The notes under the pieces: model-generated
What the model was told of the DNA's origin: nothing
What the model saw: only the letters and a program-made list of their open reading frames with translations
Databases searched by the model: none
Translations under genes and position numbers: made by a program
NCBI GenBank assembly: GCA_946411205.1
Contig: CAMKDG010000001.1
Coordinates: 8,478-72,477, forward strand
Direction: 5' to 3'
Length of the DNA: 64,000 nucleotides
Origin: an uncultured Desulfotomaculum sp.
GTDB lineage: Bacteria > Bacillota > Desulfotomaculia > Desulfotomaculales > Desulfotomaculaceae
Shown here: positions 8,350 through 54,356 of the stretch, piece by piece
Numbering within the stretch: position 1 is the stretch's first letter
Layout: every line of letters starts with the position of its first letter

Positions 8350-8602
8350 AATATGCTTATCTCCTGTGAACGGGAAAGTAAATTGGTGGGAGTCTGTACA
8401 GAGAGTCCGGGATTGGTGCAAGCCGGGCCAGAACCATCCTTTGAAGATCACCCGGGAGGTGCCTACTGAAACCCTGGATTAGGGGAGTAAGTTTGGCCGT
8501 TAACATCGACGTTAAAGGTGTATCGAGTGTTCAGGTTTTTGTCTGTTCATGAGGGTGGTACCGCGGGTTATCAACTCGTCCCTTTTTAGGGACGGGTTTT
8601 TT
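8350..8602 (+). promoter_or_regulatory. T-box leader (Ile) with terminator/antiterminator
   Basis: T-box sequence AGGGTGGTACCGCGG (8552-8566). Terminator CGTCCC-N6-GGGACG plus T-run (8577-8602). Candidate AUC specifier at 8447-8449. Precedes ileS. Confidence 0.85.
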
Positions 8603-11585: not shown

Positions 11586-11637
11586 AAATACAATCTAACA
11601 AAATTTGGTACAGAAGTTTTAAATTGCAAAAGTTATT

Positions 11638-11779
11638 ACCTCCGAGCTTTGGAACCTGTGATAGTGGATTATGGTTCTTTAGCCGTTAGGGTTCACCTGG
11701 AAACGGGTGTGCCTCCCGTGTGGAAAGGATGGTAGGTTTATTAAACATACCTTTAACCGCACTTTATGCGGTTTTTTTT
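11638..11779 (+). promoter_or_regulatory. Moco (molybdenum cofactor) riboswitch-like element 1 with its own terminator
   Basis: Blocks CCTCCGAGC, GCCGTTAGGGTT, GGAAACGGGT, GCCTCCC and GGAAAGGA. Terminator AACCGCA-cttta-TGCGGTT plus T8 (11755-11779). Confidence 0.7.
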
Positions 11780-11796
11780 GTATATAAAGATAAAGT

Positions 11797-11959
11797 TCTC
11801 CGAGCCATAATACCTAATACTGTTGTGATGGTGCTATGGCCGTATAGGGTTAATCGGGAAACGGGTTAGCCTCCCTTTGGAAAGGAGAGCGCATTATTCC
11901 GCCTTGTTAGGTAGGGTTGGTTTATGCTGCTTTCTTTAGGCGCATATGCCGGCTTTTTT
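11797..11959 (+). promoter_or_regulatory. Moco riboswitch-like element 2 with a weaker terminator-like hairpin
   Basis: The same blocks in the same order: CTCCGAGCC, GCCGTATAGGGTT, GGAAACGGGT, GCCTCCC, GGAAAGGA. Hairpin GGTTTATGC/GCATATGCC (11919-11950), then GGC plus T6. Confidence 0.65.
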
Positions 11960-21799: not shown

Positions 21800-22136
21800 A
21801 GTTGTCTCCTCCTTAGGAACAAGAAACCCCCCCGAGAAAGGGAGGCTTCTTTTACCAGGTTTTTATCATCAAAACTCCCAAGGAACTTCGTACTCTAAGA
21901 CCCACAGAGAGTGACGGAGCTATCCATAGGGTAAGTTTACGGATGACAAAACCGGGCTGATATCATTATTTCCTGGATGGGCAAAAATATTTATCAATGA
22001 TTCAAATTTTGACGACATATGATAGTGTAGGATTAATAATTTTACTAATCTGAAAAATTTTTTTTTATTTACAAGGATTTTTAAAGTTGTAACAGAAATT
22101 TATCTTTATCGGACAATTGAATACTTACGGATGATG

Positions 22137-22373
22137 GCTGTGGGAGAGACCCGAAAAGAGGGCGCCGAAGGAGCACGAGGGCTTACCGTGCTGTGGTAAC
22201 CGTTTAAACTCTCAGGCAAAAGGACTGCGGTCAGACGTACTCTGGAGAGTTCCCACCGATTAATCGTGTGGGACACCAAAGGGGCAGCCTCTAGGAATAG
22301 AGGTCATCTTTCAGGTTAAAAGGACAGAGTTATACCAGCTTGGGTATAATTCTGTCCTTTTTGTATTCTAGTA
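22137..22373 (+). promoter_or_regulatory. Tandem glycine riboswitch (two aptamers) plus terminator
   Basis: Aptamer 1: GGGAGAG...GCGCCGAAGGAGCA...CTCAGGCAAAAGGAC. Aptamer 2: CTGGAGAG...GACACCAAAGGGGCA...TTCAGGTTAAAAGGAC. Terminator GGACAGAgTTATACC/GGGTATAATTCTGTCC plus T5 (22331-22373). Precedes gcvT. Confidence 0.9.
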
Positions 22374-28337: not shown

Positions 28338-30248
28338 TTACAGATCCCCGTCCTCATAGACGATGCGGAGATTTGGATCGTGGCGCTTAGACATCTTGTG
28401 GCGGGCCTTGCGGTTTTCCACCGTATCAAAGATGATGGAAAAGTCGTAATTGGGAGGATACAGTTCGGCAGCCGATACCCAGAGTTTTAACCGATTGTGT
28501 TTGACCTTGCATTTTTTCCCCTTCACCTGTACCACTACGTCACCATGTTCATCAGCAGGCCGGTAAACAATCCCGCTCTCTCCGTCTGACAGGAGGATGA
28601 CGCTGTCACCCATGGTAAATTTAGCGGCAAGATCGACGGTTTTCTGTTCTGGCAATGAACGCAGCAAGCGGCTTTTAGGTGCTTTCATGACCGTTCCGTT
28701 GGGTGCGTCGCCGGAGTGTTCGCCGTATACCTCATAGTGCGCCCGCTCCAACAGATGCGGGGCAAGACCCAGATGCCTGGCGATGTTTAGGGCGCAGCTT
28801 TCCCCGGTTTTGCCTAGCTCAAGCTGGTAGAGGGGGCGCAGACTTTCCTGATCAAAGGCCATCCGCGCACTCATCACACCGGCTGTATCTCTCGCATAGG
28901 TCTTTACCTGAGGATAGTGGGTGGTGACAAGGAACATACCGCCCCGTTGCCTCAGTTCCTCCAGGATGGCAACGGCGATACCCATGCCCTCAGCCGGGTC
29001 AGTGCCGCTACCCAACTCATCCAGTAGCACCAGACTGTCCCGGCTGGCCTGCTCCAGAATATGGATGATATTGGTCATGTGGCCAGAAAAGGTAGACAGG
29101 TTTTGCGAAATATTTTGACTGTCGCCGATGTCGCACCAGTAGCCATCCTGCATAGCAATATAGCTGCCTTCACCGCAGGGGATGTGAAGACCGCACTGGG
29201 CCATTAGGGAGAGAAGCCCTACCGTCTTGAGAGCTACGGTTTTTCCGCCGGTGTTGGGGCCGGTGATGATGACCCCGGAGGTATCTTCATTCATCCGAAA
29301 GTTTAATGGTACGCAGCTTTCTCCAGCCAGCAAGGGGTGACGACCCTGACGGATATGCAGTCTTCGCTCCCCACCGATTTCTACCGGCACGGCTTTCATG
29401 GCGGCACTCAGCTTGGCTTTGGCGAACAGTATATCCAGTATTTCCATGGCTTCCATGTTGCGGCGTATGGGGACTGCAGACTCTGCCACCAATGAGGAGA
29501 GAATATAGAGAATACGCTGCACCTCGGAGTCTTCCTCCCAGACGAGAGAGGTCATATCTGCCTGAAGCTTGGCTATGGCAGACGGTTCCATGAAGATGGT
29601 GGATCCTTTGCTGGAAGCCTCAATCACGGTGCCGCCGAACTGTGCTTGGTACTTCCGCTGGACAGGCAGTACGTAACGACCTTGCCGAATGGTGATGTAC
29701 CCGTCGGCGAGGTATTGCTTCCGGCTTTGCAGGATGTGGGAAAGTTTTTCCTTAATTTGGGTTTCCACATGCTCCTTCCTGCGGCGGATATTCTTCAGGG
29801 TCGGGCTTGCGTCGTCGTAAAGAGATTCGCCGTTTACGCACTGCTCGATTTCCGACCTGAGTTCCGAGAGGTTTTCGATGCTCCGTCCATAAGAGGCGAC
29901 CTCCTCGGAAGCTTCTCCCTTTGCCAGCCAAGCAGTCATCCGTTTGCAGGACTCGGCGAACTGAGCTAGACCGATCAATTGCTTTGGGATTAACATAGAT
30001 CCCGCCTCGGCCAGAGTGATGGTTTCATCGAGATCTGTCATCAAGGAAAGAGGCGGCGACCCCAACTGATCCAGGAGTTTGCGCGCGGAGGTAGTTTCGG
30101 CCATCTTGCGGATACAGGTGTCTTCGCTAAAATAAGGAGATAAGGTGTCCAATGTATCCTTCGCCTTTTGAGATAAGGCGTGTTCTTTCAGCTTTTCAAT
30201 AATAGAAAAAAACTCCAGGGCTGCATAATGTTGATTCAATATTATCAA
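28338..30248 (-). CDS. MutS2-family ATPase paralogue lacking the Smr domain and the long coiled-coil linker
   Basis: Walker A GPNTGGKTV, STFSGHM, LLDELGSGTDP, TTHY, and a KOW-like GDSVILLSDGESGIVY..VVVQVKGKKCKV. 636 aa versus about 780 aa for canonical MutS2. The start is TTG 30248 or TTG 30239. Confidence 0.85.
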   Translation of the reverse strand: MIILNQHYAALEFFSIIEKLKEHALSQKAKDTLDTLSPYFSEDTCIRKMAETTSARKLLDQLGSPPLSLMTDLDETITLAEAGSMLIPKQLIGLAQFAESCKRMTAWLAKGEASEEVASYGRSIENLSELRSEIEQCVNGESLYDDASPTLKNIRRRKEHVETQIKEKLSHILQSRKQYLADGYITIRQGRYVLPVQRKYQAQFGGTVIEASSKGSTIFMEPSAIAKLQADMTSLVWEEDSEVQRILYILSSLVAESAVPIRRNMEAMEILDILFAKAKLSAAMKAVPVEIGGERRLHIRQGRHPLLAGESCVPLNFRMNEDTSGVIITGPNTGGKTVALKTVGLLSLMAQCGLHIPCGEGSYIAMQDGYWCDIGDSQNISQNLSTFSGHMTNIIHILEQASRDSLVLLDELGSGTDPAEGMGIAVAILEELRQRGGMFLVTTHYPQVKTYARDTAGVMSARMAFDQESLRPLYQLELGKTGESCALNIARHLGLAPHLLERAHYEVYGEHSGDAPNGTVMKAPKSRLLRSLPEQKTVDLAAKFTMGDSVILLSDGESGIVYRPADEHGDVVVQVKGKKCKVKHNRLKLWVSAAELYPPNYDFSIIFDTVENRKARHKMSKRHDPNLRIVYEDGDL

Positions 30249-30283
30249 ATCCTTTCACAAAGCCCCAAATGCCCTGTGACAGC

Positions 30284-30308
30284 AAAAAAGCGCAGTTACC
30301 CACTGCGC
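30284..30308 (-). terminator. Intrinsic terminator inside the 5' leader of the MutS2-like gene (attenuator)
   Basis: On the minus strand: GCGCAG-tgggtaa-CTGCGC plus T6, ending about 35 nt before the gene RBS. Confidence 0.65.
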
Positions 30309-30422
30309 TGCAAAAATAAACGAAAGAGGCGCTTTTGTACAAACGCTTCCTCGGTCATCTCATAAGGCATTTGGGCGCACAAAATAAACAGGTAGTACCT
30401 GCTATGCGTACAAATCATTACC

Positions 30423-30440
30423 TTATAAACTGACCGACAT
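30423..30440 (-). CDS. Candidate 5-codon leader peptide (MSVSL)
   Basis: AGGAGG (30453-30448) lies 7 nt upstream of ATG TCG GTC AGT TTA TAA. Located between the promoter and the leader terminator. Confidence 0.4.
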   Translation of the reverse strand: MSVSL

Positions 30441-30477
30441 CAACACACCTCCTGTGATCGTTTGAGACTACAAAAAT

Positions 30478-30506
30478 ACAGTAGCATGGAATTGTTGGTT
30501 TGTCAA
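30478..30506 (-). promoter_or_regulatory. Sigma-A-type promoter of the MutS2-like leader
   Basis: On the minus strand: TTGACA, 17 nt, TACTGT. Confidence 0.5.
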
Positions 30507-30513
30507 ATCCTTA

Positions 30514-30554
30514 CAAATAAAGACAAGCCAGAGTGAATGTATCACTTTGGCTTG
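30514..30554 (-). terminator. Rho-independent terminator (minus strand) upstream of that promoter
   Basis: 13-bp stem CAAGCCAAAGTGA/TCACTCTGGCTTG followed by TCTTTATTT on the minus strand. Confidence 0.65.
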
Positions 30555-30555
30555 C

Positions 30556-30636
30556 TTACGTTAGGCCCGATCTACAGCTAAAATGACAAAGGGCATGCAC
30601 AGGATATAAATCAACATCAAAATTCCTTCCACGCAT
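30556..30636 (-). CDS. Candidate 26-aa small ORF (MRGRNFDVDLYPVHALCHFSCRSGLT)
   Basis: GGGGAGGTG lies 5 nt before the ATG. The ORF ends immediately before the 30514-30554 terminator. It is the last third of the 90-aa track ORF. Confidence 0.3.
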   Translation of the reverse strand: MRGRNFDVDLYPVHALCHFSCRSGLT

Positions 30637-30740
30637 TGTCACCTCCCCACTATAGCCTCTGAATGAAGTTAAGCGAACGCTGTTATATAGTAATTCTATG
30701 CCACAAAGACGTTTTCCTTTCTGAATAAAAGCCTTTGTTG

Positions 30741-30768
30741 ATTTGTCAAAAAGTTCATTTGTCAAAAA
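30741..30768. repeat. Direct repeat ATTTGTCAAAAA x2 (16-bp period)
   Basis: Copies at 30741-30752 and 30757-30768. On the minus strand each contains TTGACA. Confidence 0.6.
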
Positions 30769-30820
30769 TAGGTATTCATTTGAAAGAATGCTTGTATAAT
30801 TATACAAGCAATAAAAAATT

Positions 30821-31717
30821 TTAGGCACTCTTTAATTCTTTGCTGCCGGGTTGTGCTTCGATACTGTCTTTTAGCTCTGCCACCAGCATACCTGTAAGAA
30901 TGAGCAGACAACCTAACCACTGTCTGCTAGTGAGGATTTCTCCAGCCCACAACCAACCGGTAGCAGCGGCAAATACTGGTTCCATAATAAAGATGATGGC
31001 GGTATGGGTAGGGGAGGTATAGCGTTGTACTGAGTTCTGAATCAAGAAGGCCAGGGCGGTGGCAGGTATGGCGGTGATTAAGAGGCCCATCCAGACCGGT
31101 CTGATGAATTGTTCGGGTAGGGTTTCCCAAGTTGCCCCACAAGCCAAACTGATGATTGCCACCACACCAATCTGTAAGACGGCCAACAACACTGGGTCAT
31201 GCCGGGGAGCATATTTGCCCACCAAGAGAATGTGTCCTGCATAAGAAAGGGCACAAAAGAAAGTTAGGGTATCACCGTAATTAACCCTGAAATCATTATT
31301 GAGAGAAAGCAAGGCCAGACCCACGGTGGCACAAGTAATACCGATGATGGCCGCAGTCTTAGGAAGCCTTTTGGACAAGAGAGATGAAATAAGGGGCACC
31401 AGCACCACGGCCAGCCCAGTGATAAATCCTGCATTCGATGCTGTGGTATATTGTAAGCCCACGGTCTGAAAGGCATAACCGACAAACAAAACAGCACCGA
31501 TAATGAAACCCGCCTTTAGGGTATCTTTATTTAAAAAGGCAAAGCGACGCCAGTAAAGCAAAGTTAAAAAAGCAAAGGCAATGGCGAACCGGATCCCAAT
31601 AAAGTAATAGGGACCGATGCCAGATAGGGCATCCTGTACTACCACAAAGGTAACCCCCCAGATAAAGGTTACCCCAAGCAGAGCCAGGTCCGCTTGTATT
31701 TGTTTCAATCTAGTCAT
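30821..31717 (-). CDS. EamA/DMT-family transporter
   Basis: Ten predicted TM helices and two EamA repeats. The ATG at 31717 is preceded by GAAGGTGG; the track start at 31756 is an extension. Confidence 0.85.
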   Translation of the reverse strand: MTRLKQIQADLALLGVTFIWGVTFVVVQDALSGIGPYYFIGIRFAIAFAFLTLLYWRRFAFLNKDTLKAGFIIGAVLFVGYAFQTVGLQYTTASNAGFITGLAVVLVPLISSLLSKRLPKTAAIIGITCATVGLALLSLNNDFRVNYGDTLTFFCALSYAGHILLVGKYAPRHDPVLLAVLQIGVVAIISLACGATWETLPEQFIRPVWMGLLITAIPATALAFLIQNSVQRYTSPTHTAIIFIMEPVFAAATGWLWAGEILTSRQWLGCLLILTGMLVAELKDSIEAQPGSKELKSA

Positions 31718-54029: not shown

Positions 54030-54356
54030 GTGGGAGCCCCGAGCCTTTGTCGACACTTGCATCCAGATTCCGTCTGTGTTAACATAAAGGTGTGTACTAG
54101 TTATTTTTGTAACAAAGGAACGCCCTACTTTGTGCGTGCAATATCTGAAGTTTTGAGCCAACAGATGTTGAAACGGGAGTCCGATTTCTTGCAAGGGAAT
54201 GTAGACCTTACGAGTATAAGGAAACAGGAAATTGTGGAAAGGGCACCCACCTGTGAGTACAGGTTCAACAAACTTTGGATACGGACACGGCAAGGCGGGG
54301 TTTCTTTGCGTTTTACTGCTAAAAACATCTCTCTGAGAGAGATGTTTTTTCTTTTT
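54030..54356 (+). ncRNA. Unassigned ~320-nt non-coding region ending in a strong terminator; candidate sRNA or structured RNA of unknown class
   Basis: Only weak overlapping ORFs on both strands, none with an RBS. Hairpin ATGCAAaAGTG...CACTTGCAT (54022-54062). Long-range pairing AACAAAGGAACGCCC (54111-) with GGCGGGGTTTCTTTGCGTT (54293-54311). Terminator ACATCTCTC-tga-GAGAGATGT plus T6 (54321-54356). Confidence 0.3.

Follow-up and report, generated by a model that had tools for sequence, protein, structure and literature searches.

A leader of about 230 nt lies directly upstream of a gene for a MutS2 paralogue in the stretch of uncultured Desulfotomaculum sp. DNA analyzed here (64,000 nucleotides; called the window). 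The gene (28338 to 30248 at most, minus strand; TIGR01069, Pfam MutS_V) encodes a protein of up to 636 residues that lacks the Smr domain. We conclude that the leader is probably a ribosome-dependent transcription attenuator that controls this Smr-less paralogue. It has a dedicated promoter, a conserved short open reading frame (ORF), an intervening terminator, and mutually exclusive folds, with the ORF in the strand that decides between them. The original prediction, made from the letters of the sequence, had described an attenuator-like leader of the kind found in inducible erm, cat, and ABC-F genes. The attenuator-like character is supported by our results. However, the type appears to be transcription attenuation, as in the leaders of hflXr and ABC-F genes, and not the translation attenuation of erm and cat. 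The evidence is computational throughout and consists of sequence comparison and RNA folding. Coordinates are window positions, and all leader elements are read on the minus strand.

Layout and conservation of the leader

The original prediction had correctly located the promoter, the Shine-Dalgarno (SD) sequence, the mini-ORF, the hairpins, the long-range pairing, and the terminator, as judged by sequence reading and a listing of hairpins. The promoter (30506 to 30478), recognized by sequence reading and conservation, has a −35 box TTGACA (30506 to 30501), a 17-nt spacer, and a TG-extended −10 box TACTGT (30483 to 30478). The SD sequence AGGAGG (30453 to 30448) lies 7 nt upstream of the ATG and is also part of the 5' strand of a helix, P0 (30453 to 30445). 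The mini-ORF, ATG TCG GTC AGT TTA TAA (30440 to 30423), encodes MSVSL. Further downstream are a CAGGTA/TACCTG hairpin (30403 to 30387) with a U-rich (T-rich) tail and a segment, CCCAAATGCC (30375 to 30366), that is complementary over 10 bp to GGCATTTGGG (30273 to 30264). The hairpin listing also gave the intrinsic terminator T2, AGCGCAGT-GGGTA-ACTGCGCT (30309 to 30289), which has an 8-bp GC-rich stem and a T6 run that ends at 30284. The predicted GCGCAG/CTGCGC stem and T6 therefore stand, but the gap to the ribosome-binding site (RBS) of the paralogue is 27 nt and not about 35 nt. This RBS is GAAAGGA (30256 to 30250). The probable start codon is TTG at 30239 to 30237, and the N termini of the orthologues align at MN(Q/N)HY; there is an earlier in-frame TTG at 30248. 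Because the T-run is separated from the start codon by 45 nt, there is no room for a further promoter downstream of the terminator. The minimum free energy (MFE) of the 251-nt leader fold is −86.8 kcal/mol (z = −5.08), and 0 of 200 shuffled sequences folded as well.

To place the leader among its relatives, we used 98 loci that encode relatives of the paralogue, taken from one genome scan and one metagenome scan. A search with an nhmmer profile built on the first 17 leaders gave 71 matches, 54 of them unique and full-length. These leaders are found upstream of nearly all orthologues with at least about 50% amino acid identity, in several families of Bacillota; the 64-kb window holds a single copy. 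They fall into group A1 (window-like, starting ATG TCG GTC), group A2 (L004-like, with a 10-nt insertion), and group B (TTG start), the last from Emergencia, Limiplasma, Cuneatibacter, and others. The original prediction depended on conservation of the ORF and hairpins next to orthologues, and this conservation is clear: the 54 unique leaders keep the promoter, SD, ORF, hairpins, and terminator. In the window, the −10 box of this promoter is weak. A strict promoter scan of the window did not list the TTGACA/TACTGT promoter, because TACTGT agrees with the −10 consensus at just 3 of 6 positions. In the comparison, a promoter with a TTGACA-like box, a spacer of 16 to 18 nt, and TAnnnT (at least 9 of 12 matches, mostly TG-extended) is present in 54 of 54 unique leaders, and its −10 box ends 27 to 53 nt (mostly 28 to 31 nt) upstream of the mini-ORF start.

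Rfam 15 gave no gathering-score match in the leader and nothing plausible at E ≤ 10 in 30000 to 30800, the leaders of 14 related loci had no Rfam match, and BLASTN of the leader against PLSDB plasmids found no match. On this comparison, the leader would represent a cis-regulatory RNA family new to Rfam.

The mini-ORF is conserved as well. The start codon with the best SD occupies the same position in all 54 unique leaders and opens an ORF of 3 to 6 codons. It is ATG, GTG, or TTG and no other codon, and the SD-to-start spacing is 7 nt in most leaders. The peptides are usually M-S-V or M-x-S-V, for example MSVSL, MSVVQ, MSVGR, MSV, MSVAQ, MSVVVL, MLSVL, MLSVP, MLTVP, and MESVL. In L005-type leaders the usual TAA or TAG is gone, and an in-frame TGA follows one codon past Val. 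Across the leaders, including the more distant ones described below, the codons TCG, TCC, TCT, and AGT all specify the serine at position 2 (or 3), and Leu4 is specified by CTG, TTA, or TTG. Such crossing from one codon family to another suggests that the peptide itself is selected and, by extension, translated. By this comparison the leader peptide appears to be under selection, and we infer that the mini-ORF is translated.

More distant paralogues (42 to 45% identity; L078 to L097) have longer, related leader ORFs, MSVLSVMVVLN, MSVLSVTVELN, and MSVLSVTAN, about 250 to 300 nt upstream of the gene. By eye, these leaders apparently contain two successive terminator-like hairpins, of which one terminator was folded. 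Further Smr-less paralogues came from a tblastn search of plasmid and replicon records, and each has a leader ORF: GTG AGT GTT TAG (MSV) on the pSOL1 megaplasmid of Clostridium acetobutylicum, MSVNVLN in Paenibacillus, MLGVVLN in Cytobacillus, MSAVGTK in Bacillus sp., MSLVVSSK in Brevibacillus, and MSVIVLL in Acetoanaerobium. On pSOL1 (L099), a gene for a TetR/AcrR regulator (495 to 1070) lies directly upstream of the leader and the paralogue CA_RS19705. Five distant leaders were folded (C. acetobutylicum, Paenibacillus, Cytobacillus, and two group C loci), and they share the layout of a hairpin plus a terminator.

Two alternative folds

The original prediction had suggested comparing alternative structures of the leader and looking for covariation in homologous leaders. 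Folding gave two mutually exclusive structures, with the ORF in the strand that decides between them, and the helices of both structures covary. We call them the closed and the open fold.

In the closed fold, the SD and the mini-ORF form the 5' arm of a long irregular hairpin, P0 to P3. The single-sequence MFE structures of the first 17 homologues all show this hairpin, followed by a small hairpin, P4, and then by T2. P0 pairs 30453 to 30445 with 30332 to 30324, so that the SD is held by a CCUCU anti-SD, and it is backed by covariation. P1a pairs ORF codons 2 and 3 (TCGGTCA, 30437 to 30431) with TGACCGA (30357 to 30351). P1b pairs codons 4 and 5, the stop codon, and its flank (30429 to 30420) with GCCTTATGAG (30368 to 30359); across the homologues, the MFE partner of this region is CCUUAUGA. 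Both parts of P1 appear in the MFE folds and in covariation, and P2 (30412 to 30407 with 30381 to 30376) and the apical P3 (30403 to 30397 with 30393 to 30387) appear in the MFE folds and the covariance-model alignments. P3 is the CAGG/CCTG hairpin with a T-rich tail of the original prediction. It is present, but as the tip of the long hairpin and not as a separate terminator. P3 may act as a pause hairpin.

When run on plain MAFFT alignments, RNAalifold found no more than the terminator and some short helices, since bulges shift the arms out of register. Therefore, we built two covariance models from the window and L001, one for each fold. The closed-fold model aligned 32 group A leaders. In this alignment, 89.6% of cells are paired, versus 28 to 52% for slid partners; 33 of 47 pairs show changes on both sides, versus 7 to 17; and 138 cells carry compensatory changes, versus at most 38. 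P1a and P1b taken together as helix 2 have compensatory changes at 13 of 17 pairs. In P0, 8 of 9 pairs have changed on both sides in this structure-fitted alignment, which argues that sequestration of the mini-ORF SD is under selection. The closed-fold model (R1) fails to reach group B, which was analyzed on a MAFFT alignment instead.

The open fold uses the same strands in another way. Its covariance model, for the alternative structure, aligned the same 32 group A leaders. P4, which also appears in the hairpin listing, pairs 30351 to 30342 with 30333 to 30325, and its 3' strand, GCGCCTCT, is the anti-SD, that is, the 3' strand of P0 (30332 to 30324). P0 and P4 are mutually exclusive because they share this strand. 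Seven of the 8 pairs of P4 are compensatory, and 93.6% of cells are paired. P4 is extended by P4ext, AGATGA (30360 to 30355) with TCGTTT (30323 to 30318), which RNAalifold found on the MAFFT alignment. P4ext (GAAUGA:UYGUUY) is 92% paired with double changes at 2 pairs, and its 5' strand overlaps the 3' strand of P1a, for which it is an alternative partner.

The third helix of the open fold is formed by segment X (30379 to 30366), which reads GCGCCCAAATGCC in the window and UACCCAAAUGCC in most relatives. In the closed fold, X is the 3' side of an internal loop and part of P1b, and it overlaps P1b and P2. In the open fold, X pairs with X' (GGCATTTGGG, 30273 to 30264), just downstream of the terminator, in a long-range helix (LR). 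X is also complementary to the 5' strand and loop of the terminator. The X:X' duplex has a predicted energy of −23.4 kcal/mol in the window, with a group mean of −15.9 kcal/mol (z = −2.9). On a sequence-only MAFFT alignment, its 13-bp helix is 87.5% paired, versus 18 to 57% for slid partners; A-U is replaced by G-C in 5 sequences, and the covariation score of the helix was not attained in any of 500 shuffles. The 10-bp long-range pairing of the original prediction is thus real and conserved, and it covaries.

Maintenance of both exclusive sets of helices argues that the leader is a two-state switch between P0+P1+P2 and P4+P4ext+X:X'. When the 5' arm of the full-length window RNA was blocked, the predicted fold was exactly the P4+P4ext+X:X' state. 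One further pairing in the window MFE structure, between the mini-ORF start GUGUUGAU and AUCAACA (MutS2 codons 3 to 5), was set aside as a coincidence because it is absent in L001.

Proposed terminator control and competing explanations

All homologues have T2, which shows compensatory changes from group to group. We modeled a ribosome on the group B mini-ORF by blocking the region from SD to stop, plus about 11 further nt, from pairing. Of these leaders, 17 fold the terminator without the block; in 9 of them the block lowered the predicted terminator probability markedly, to 0.3 or less, and the 5' half of the terminator re-paired mostly with the 3' arm of P1a/P0. This antiterminator is paired in 73.7% of cells, versus 29 to 46% for slid partners. 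Its 13 compensatory cells were equaled in 2 of 500 shuffles, and its covariation score was reached in 0 of 500. The competing P1 helix is 81.6% paired, versus 27 to 48% for slid partners. By these models and alignments, group B leaders look like a textbook 1:2 / 2:3 / 3:4 attenuator.

In group A, terminator displacement was predicted in about a dozen of the 32 leaders, including most of clade A2. The displacing partner is always X (UACCCAAAUGC), which pairs with GCG..UGGGUA of the terminator 5' strand and loop. This complementarity holds in 91.8% of cells, versus 20 to 57% for slid partners, and a double change is seen once, in L056 (UAUCCA with UGGAUA). Within the window's group the T2 stem and loop are almost invariant, and this near-invariance in group A fits a three-way constraint. 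We suggest that X and the 5' half of T2 may act together as a kinetic antiterminator, which would be transient and would give way to the stronger X:X'. The X:X' helix was itself considered as the antiterminator and rejected, because X' lies downstream of the T-run.

The proposed mechanism is as follows. Transcription would begin about 20 nt upstream of the strong SD. A ribosome could load on the MSVSL ORF only while the RNA is nascent, because the SD, the ORF, and the stop flank would later be buried in P0, P1a, and P1b. If the ribosome leaves fast or never loads, P0 to P3 would close, the terminator (30309 to 30284) would form, and transcription would stop. If the ribosome lingers on the mini-ORF, the 3' arm would stay free and refold into P4 and P4ext, X would transiently pair with the terminator 5' strand and loop, and RNA polymerase would read through. 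X would then pair with X' past the terminator and lock the open fold on the full-length mRNA. Ribosome stalling is the likely signal in this scheme, which for the window draws partly on analogy with group B.

Several observations weigh against transcription attenuation. Under the footprint model, the predicted probability of the window terminator falls just from 0.97 to 0.91. The X:T2 pairing in the window's group shows no covariation beyond shuffles, because both segments are too conserved, and in the window it consists of 4 + 3 bp and is thermodynamically weak. In the window's group, a scan of all upstream 10-mers against both terminator strands likewise gave peaks no higher than the shuffled control, and the LR helix is unable to prevent termination. 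In the window's own subgroup, the antiterminator is a candidate. Clade A2 (L004, L006, L033, L056, L062, L072, and others) complicates the reading of the ORF. The SD of its in-frame GTG AGT GTT CGT CAA TAA is poor. An ATG in a better position begins another ORF, which is out of frame and varies in length from 9 to 30 codons. This ATG ORF is created by a 10-nt insertion between an SD-like GAAAG and GTG AGT GTT...TAA; the GGAAUG of the insertion pairs with CAUUCU, replacing the usual SD:anti-SD helix. Finally, both main covariation counts (the closed fold and P4/P4ext) use alignments fitted to the structures under test, and the leader sequences are not independent, because many come from related termite-gut and digester metagenomes.

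The alternative that survives best, although we consider it unlikely, is post-transcriptional control in the manner of erm and cat. Occupancy of the ORF would favor X:X' and so alter translation initiation or mRNA stability, and the terminator would either act as a constitutive but leaky brake or mark where a separate small RNA of about 190 nt ends. X:X' is the best-supported alternative helix, and it ends 2 to 6 nt upstream of the RBS. When the 5' arm is blocked, predicted RBS accessibility rises from 0.23 to 0.46 in the window and from 0.10 to 0.50 in L001. However, 19 window-type leaders showed no consistent dependence of RBS accessibility on state (mean, 0.41 versus 0.50), which is why state-dependent RBS masking was not adopted for the window's group. 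Group B offers another point in favor, a conserved hairpin (CUCAUG ... CAUGAGGAG) that lies past the terminator, some 70 nt ahead of the gene, and masks the paralogue RBS (L011, L012, L014 to L017, L058, L063, L066, L068, L069, L071, L073, and L087). This hairpin could be a second, translational layer of control. The conserved P3 loop of group B, GCAUGA, is complementary to UCAUGC of the anti-RBS strand. Against purely post-transcriptional control, a strong terminator is kept in every leader, and the group B terminator has a covarying antiterminator.

In a reading that is less probable again, the leader would be a structured RNA with a ligand or a protein as its binding partner, perhaps the paralogue itself. 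The mini-ORF would be a by-product of helix sequence, and binding, in place of a ribosome, would drive the change between the closed and open folds. The long covarying hairpin, its conserved internal loop (UACCCAAAUGCC), and the near-invariant terminator loop GGGUA speak for this view. The SD is base-paired in the closed fold, and the footprint alone leaves the window terminator in place in silico. However, the SD-to-start spacing does not vary, the start is always ATG, GTG, or TTG, and a lost stop codon is replaced by another in-frame stop. RNA constraint alone would not predict a Ser2 that spans the TCN and AGY families or the longer conserved peptides of the distant relatives, and the leader has no Rfam match even at E ≤ 10.

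An attenuator of the trp or ilv type that senses Val or Ser supply is very improbable. Here, slow decoding of Ser and Val codons would cause read-through, and these codons are indeed the conserved core of the peptide, with 3 to 4 Val among the 11 codons of the longer variants. However, codon runs are lacking, with one Ser and one Val codon in most leaders, and instead of a biosynthetic operon the target is the gene of a MutS2 paralogue, in some cases accompanied by an efflux pump. The usual amino acid sensor in Bacillota is the T-box, and the same window has a T-box leader elsewhere. Last, the idea that there is no regulation, and that an ordinary terminator or insulator between transcription units resembles an attenuator by chance, could appeal to the weak −10 box of the window (3 of 6) and its absence from the strict scan, but it is hardly credible and already contradicted by the comparative data, since the promoter, mini-ORF, helices, and terminator are kept as a unit in 54 sequences, at a fixed distance ahead of the same gene, covariation backs each of the two alternative folds, and the 45 nt from T-run to start codon are too short for a further promoter.

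The surroundings of the leader contain several other elements. The upstream neighbor on the same strand is a gene for an EamA transporter, which has a terminator-like hairpin of its own and is followed after about 270 nt by the leader promoter. A tiny hydrophobic ORF, MLIYILCMPFVILAVDRA (30561 to 30617, minus strand; RBS GGAAGGA), may be noise or may encode a small membrane peptide. Downstream of this ORF, and just upstream of the leader −35 box, lies an 11-bp hairpin whose tail is T-rich (30525 to 30553). A 90-residue ORF (30556 to 30828), for which Pfam gave no match, overlaps both the small ORF and the upstream terminator and was therefore treated as spurious. Elsewhere in the window, on the plus strand, Rfam models identify tandem molybdenum cofactor (Moco)/tungsten riboswitch aptamers (RF01055) at 11628 to 11746 and 11786 to 11903, which are 40 nt apart and score 69.6 and 72.8 bits. 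They also identify the T-box leader (8357 to 8586), a single glycine riboswitch aptamer (22131 to 22237), and a 6S RNA gene (54119 to 54305), a set of three that fits a genome of Bacillota (Clostridia).

The Smr-less paralogue and known attenuators

The paralogue matches positions 5 to 513 of the 790 positions of TIGR01069 (mutS2), in addition to Pfam MutS_V. Its best solved relative is MutS2 of Bacillus subtilis (7qv3 and 8qpp; E = 1.6e-108 over residues 8 to 538). Both entries are ribosome-bound structures. The aligned residues 8 to 538 correspond to the clamp and ATPase part of the canonical protein. Unlike canonical MutS2, the paralogue has no Smr domain, and it ends in another conserved C terminus (...LYPPDYDFSIIFDTVENRKARH), which gives no more than a sub-threshold match to the MutS2/Smr-associated SH3 domain. 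A literature search found no role assigned to the shorter Smr-less MutS2 paralogues, and we know of no paper that gives them one. The literature searches also yielded no description of a leader, attenuator, or antibiotic induction for MutS2 paralogues, and no paper that they returned reports such a leader upstream of canonical mutS2. The canonical MutS2 (RqcU) of B. subtilis was recently shown to split collided ribosomes (PMC10897456). A ribosome-related role of the paralogue may be supposed from this kinship.

In four contigs, L002 (1681 to 2985), L027, L029, and L041, a gene for a Mef-like DHA3 transporter of the major facilitator superfamily (MFS; TIGR00900-type) lies between the leader and the paralogue gene. 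Therefore, the leader heads an operon of a pump and the MutS2 paralogue in these contigs. The Mef-like pump is a suggestive hint to the inducer. By analogy, so is the conserved Ser or Thr followed by Val or Ile early in the peptide, which resembles a chloramphenicol arrest context, and so is the precedent of the hflXr small-ORF attenuator. We tentatively suggest that the Smr-less MutS2 paralogues of Bacillota could be inducible factors for ribosome rescue or antibiotic tolerance, the MutS2 counterpart of HflXr. The fMet-Ser-Val-type peptide would then be an arrest peptide that senses phenicol-like inhibitors of the peptidyl-transferase center, or another block of early elongation or termination, and a Mef-like pump would be co-expressed in some lineages. 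A conserved attenuator of the stalled-ribosome type, present in both Clostridia and Bacilli, would be the first clue to when the Smr-less paralogues are needed. This suggestion can be tested in culturable carriers, namely C. acetobutylicum with pSOL1 (CA_RS19705), Emergencia timonensis, Paenibacillus, and Brevibacillus laterosporus.

HflX and HflXr provide the parallel of a housekeeping factor and its stalling-induced paralogue. In Listeria monocytogenes, hflXr (lmo0762) encodes a resistance paralogue of a ribosome-splitting GTPase and is under the control of the small-ORF attenuator rli80 (PMC6310831). The rli80 ORF has 14 codons and the macrolide RLR motif, and read-through needs a ribosome stalled on this small ORF (PMC6310831). 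Like rli80, the leader described here is dedicated to its gene, contains a small ORF, has alternative RNA structures, and includes an intrinsic terminator, and its target is a second, specialized paralogue of a stalled-ribosome factor. However, the ORF here has 3 to 6 codons (9 to 11 in distant relatives), encodes M-S-V, and has no +x+ motif. In addition, the SD of this ORF is itself sequestered, a long-range helix spans the terminator, the two leaders share no sequence similarity, and induction is here a proposal.

A likeness to chloramphenicol-sensing ORFs is seen in the peptide. Chloramphenicol stalls ribosomes at codon 3 of an MTI or MAI ORF, with a penultimate Ala favored and Ser or Thr less so (10.1101/2021.06.17.448903). 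The fMet-Ser-Val of the mini-ORF resembles fMet-Thr-Ile of the MTI arrest context. The chloramphenicol-inducible cat and cmlA leaders also have very short sensor ORFs, as here, and act by translation attenuation that unmasks an RBS. In contrast, the leader described here ends in a terminator, and its dependence on a drug would be pure inference.

The leaders of antibiotic resistance (ARE) ABC-F and efflux genes, such as mef(A)/msr(D), vmlR, lmo0919, and bmrCD, have a promoter, a short ORF, and a paired terminator and antiterminator. The likeness to mef/msr extends to the target, because the four related contigs place a Mef-like MFS pump and a ribosome-related ATPase under the control of one leader. 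However, the regulated ATPase belongs here to the MutS2 family, and the leaders are unrelated to those of ABC-F genes in sequence and structure. The present leader is unusual in four respects: its sensor ORF has 3 to 6 codons, the SD of this ORF is sequestered, one of its helices spans the terminator, and its target belongs to the MutS2 family.

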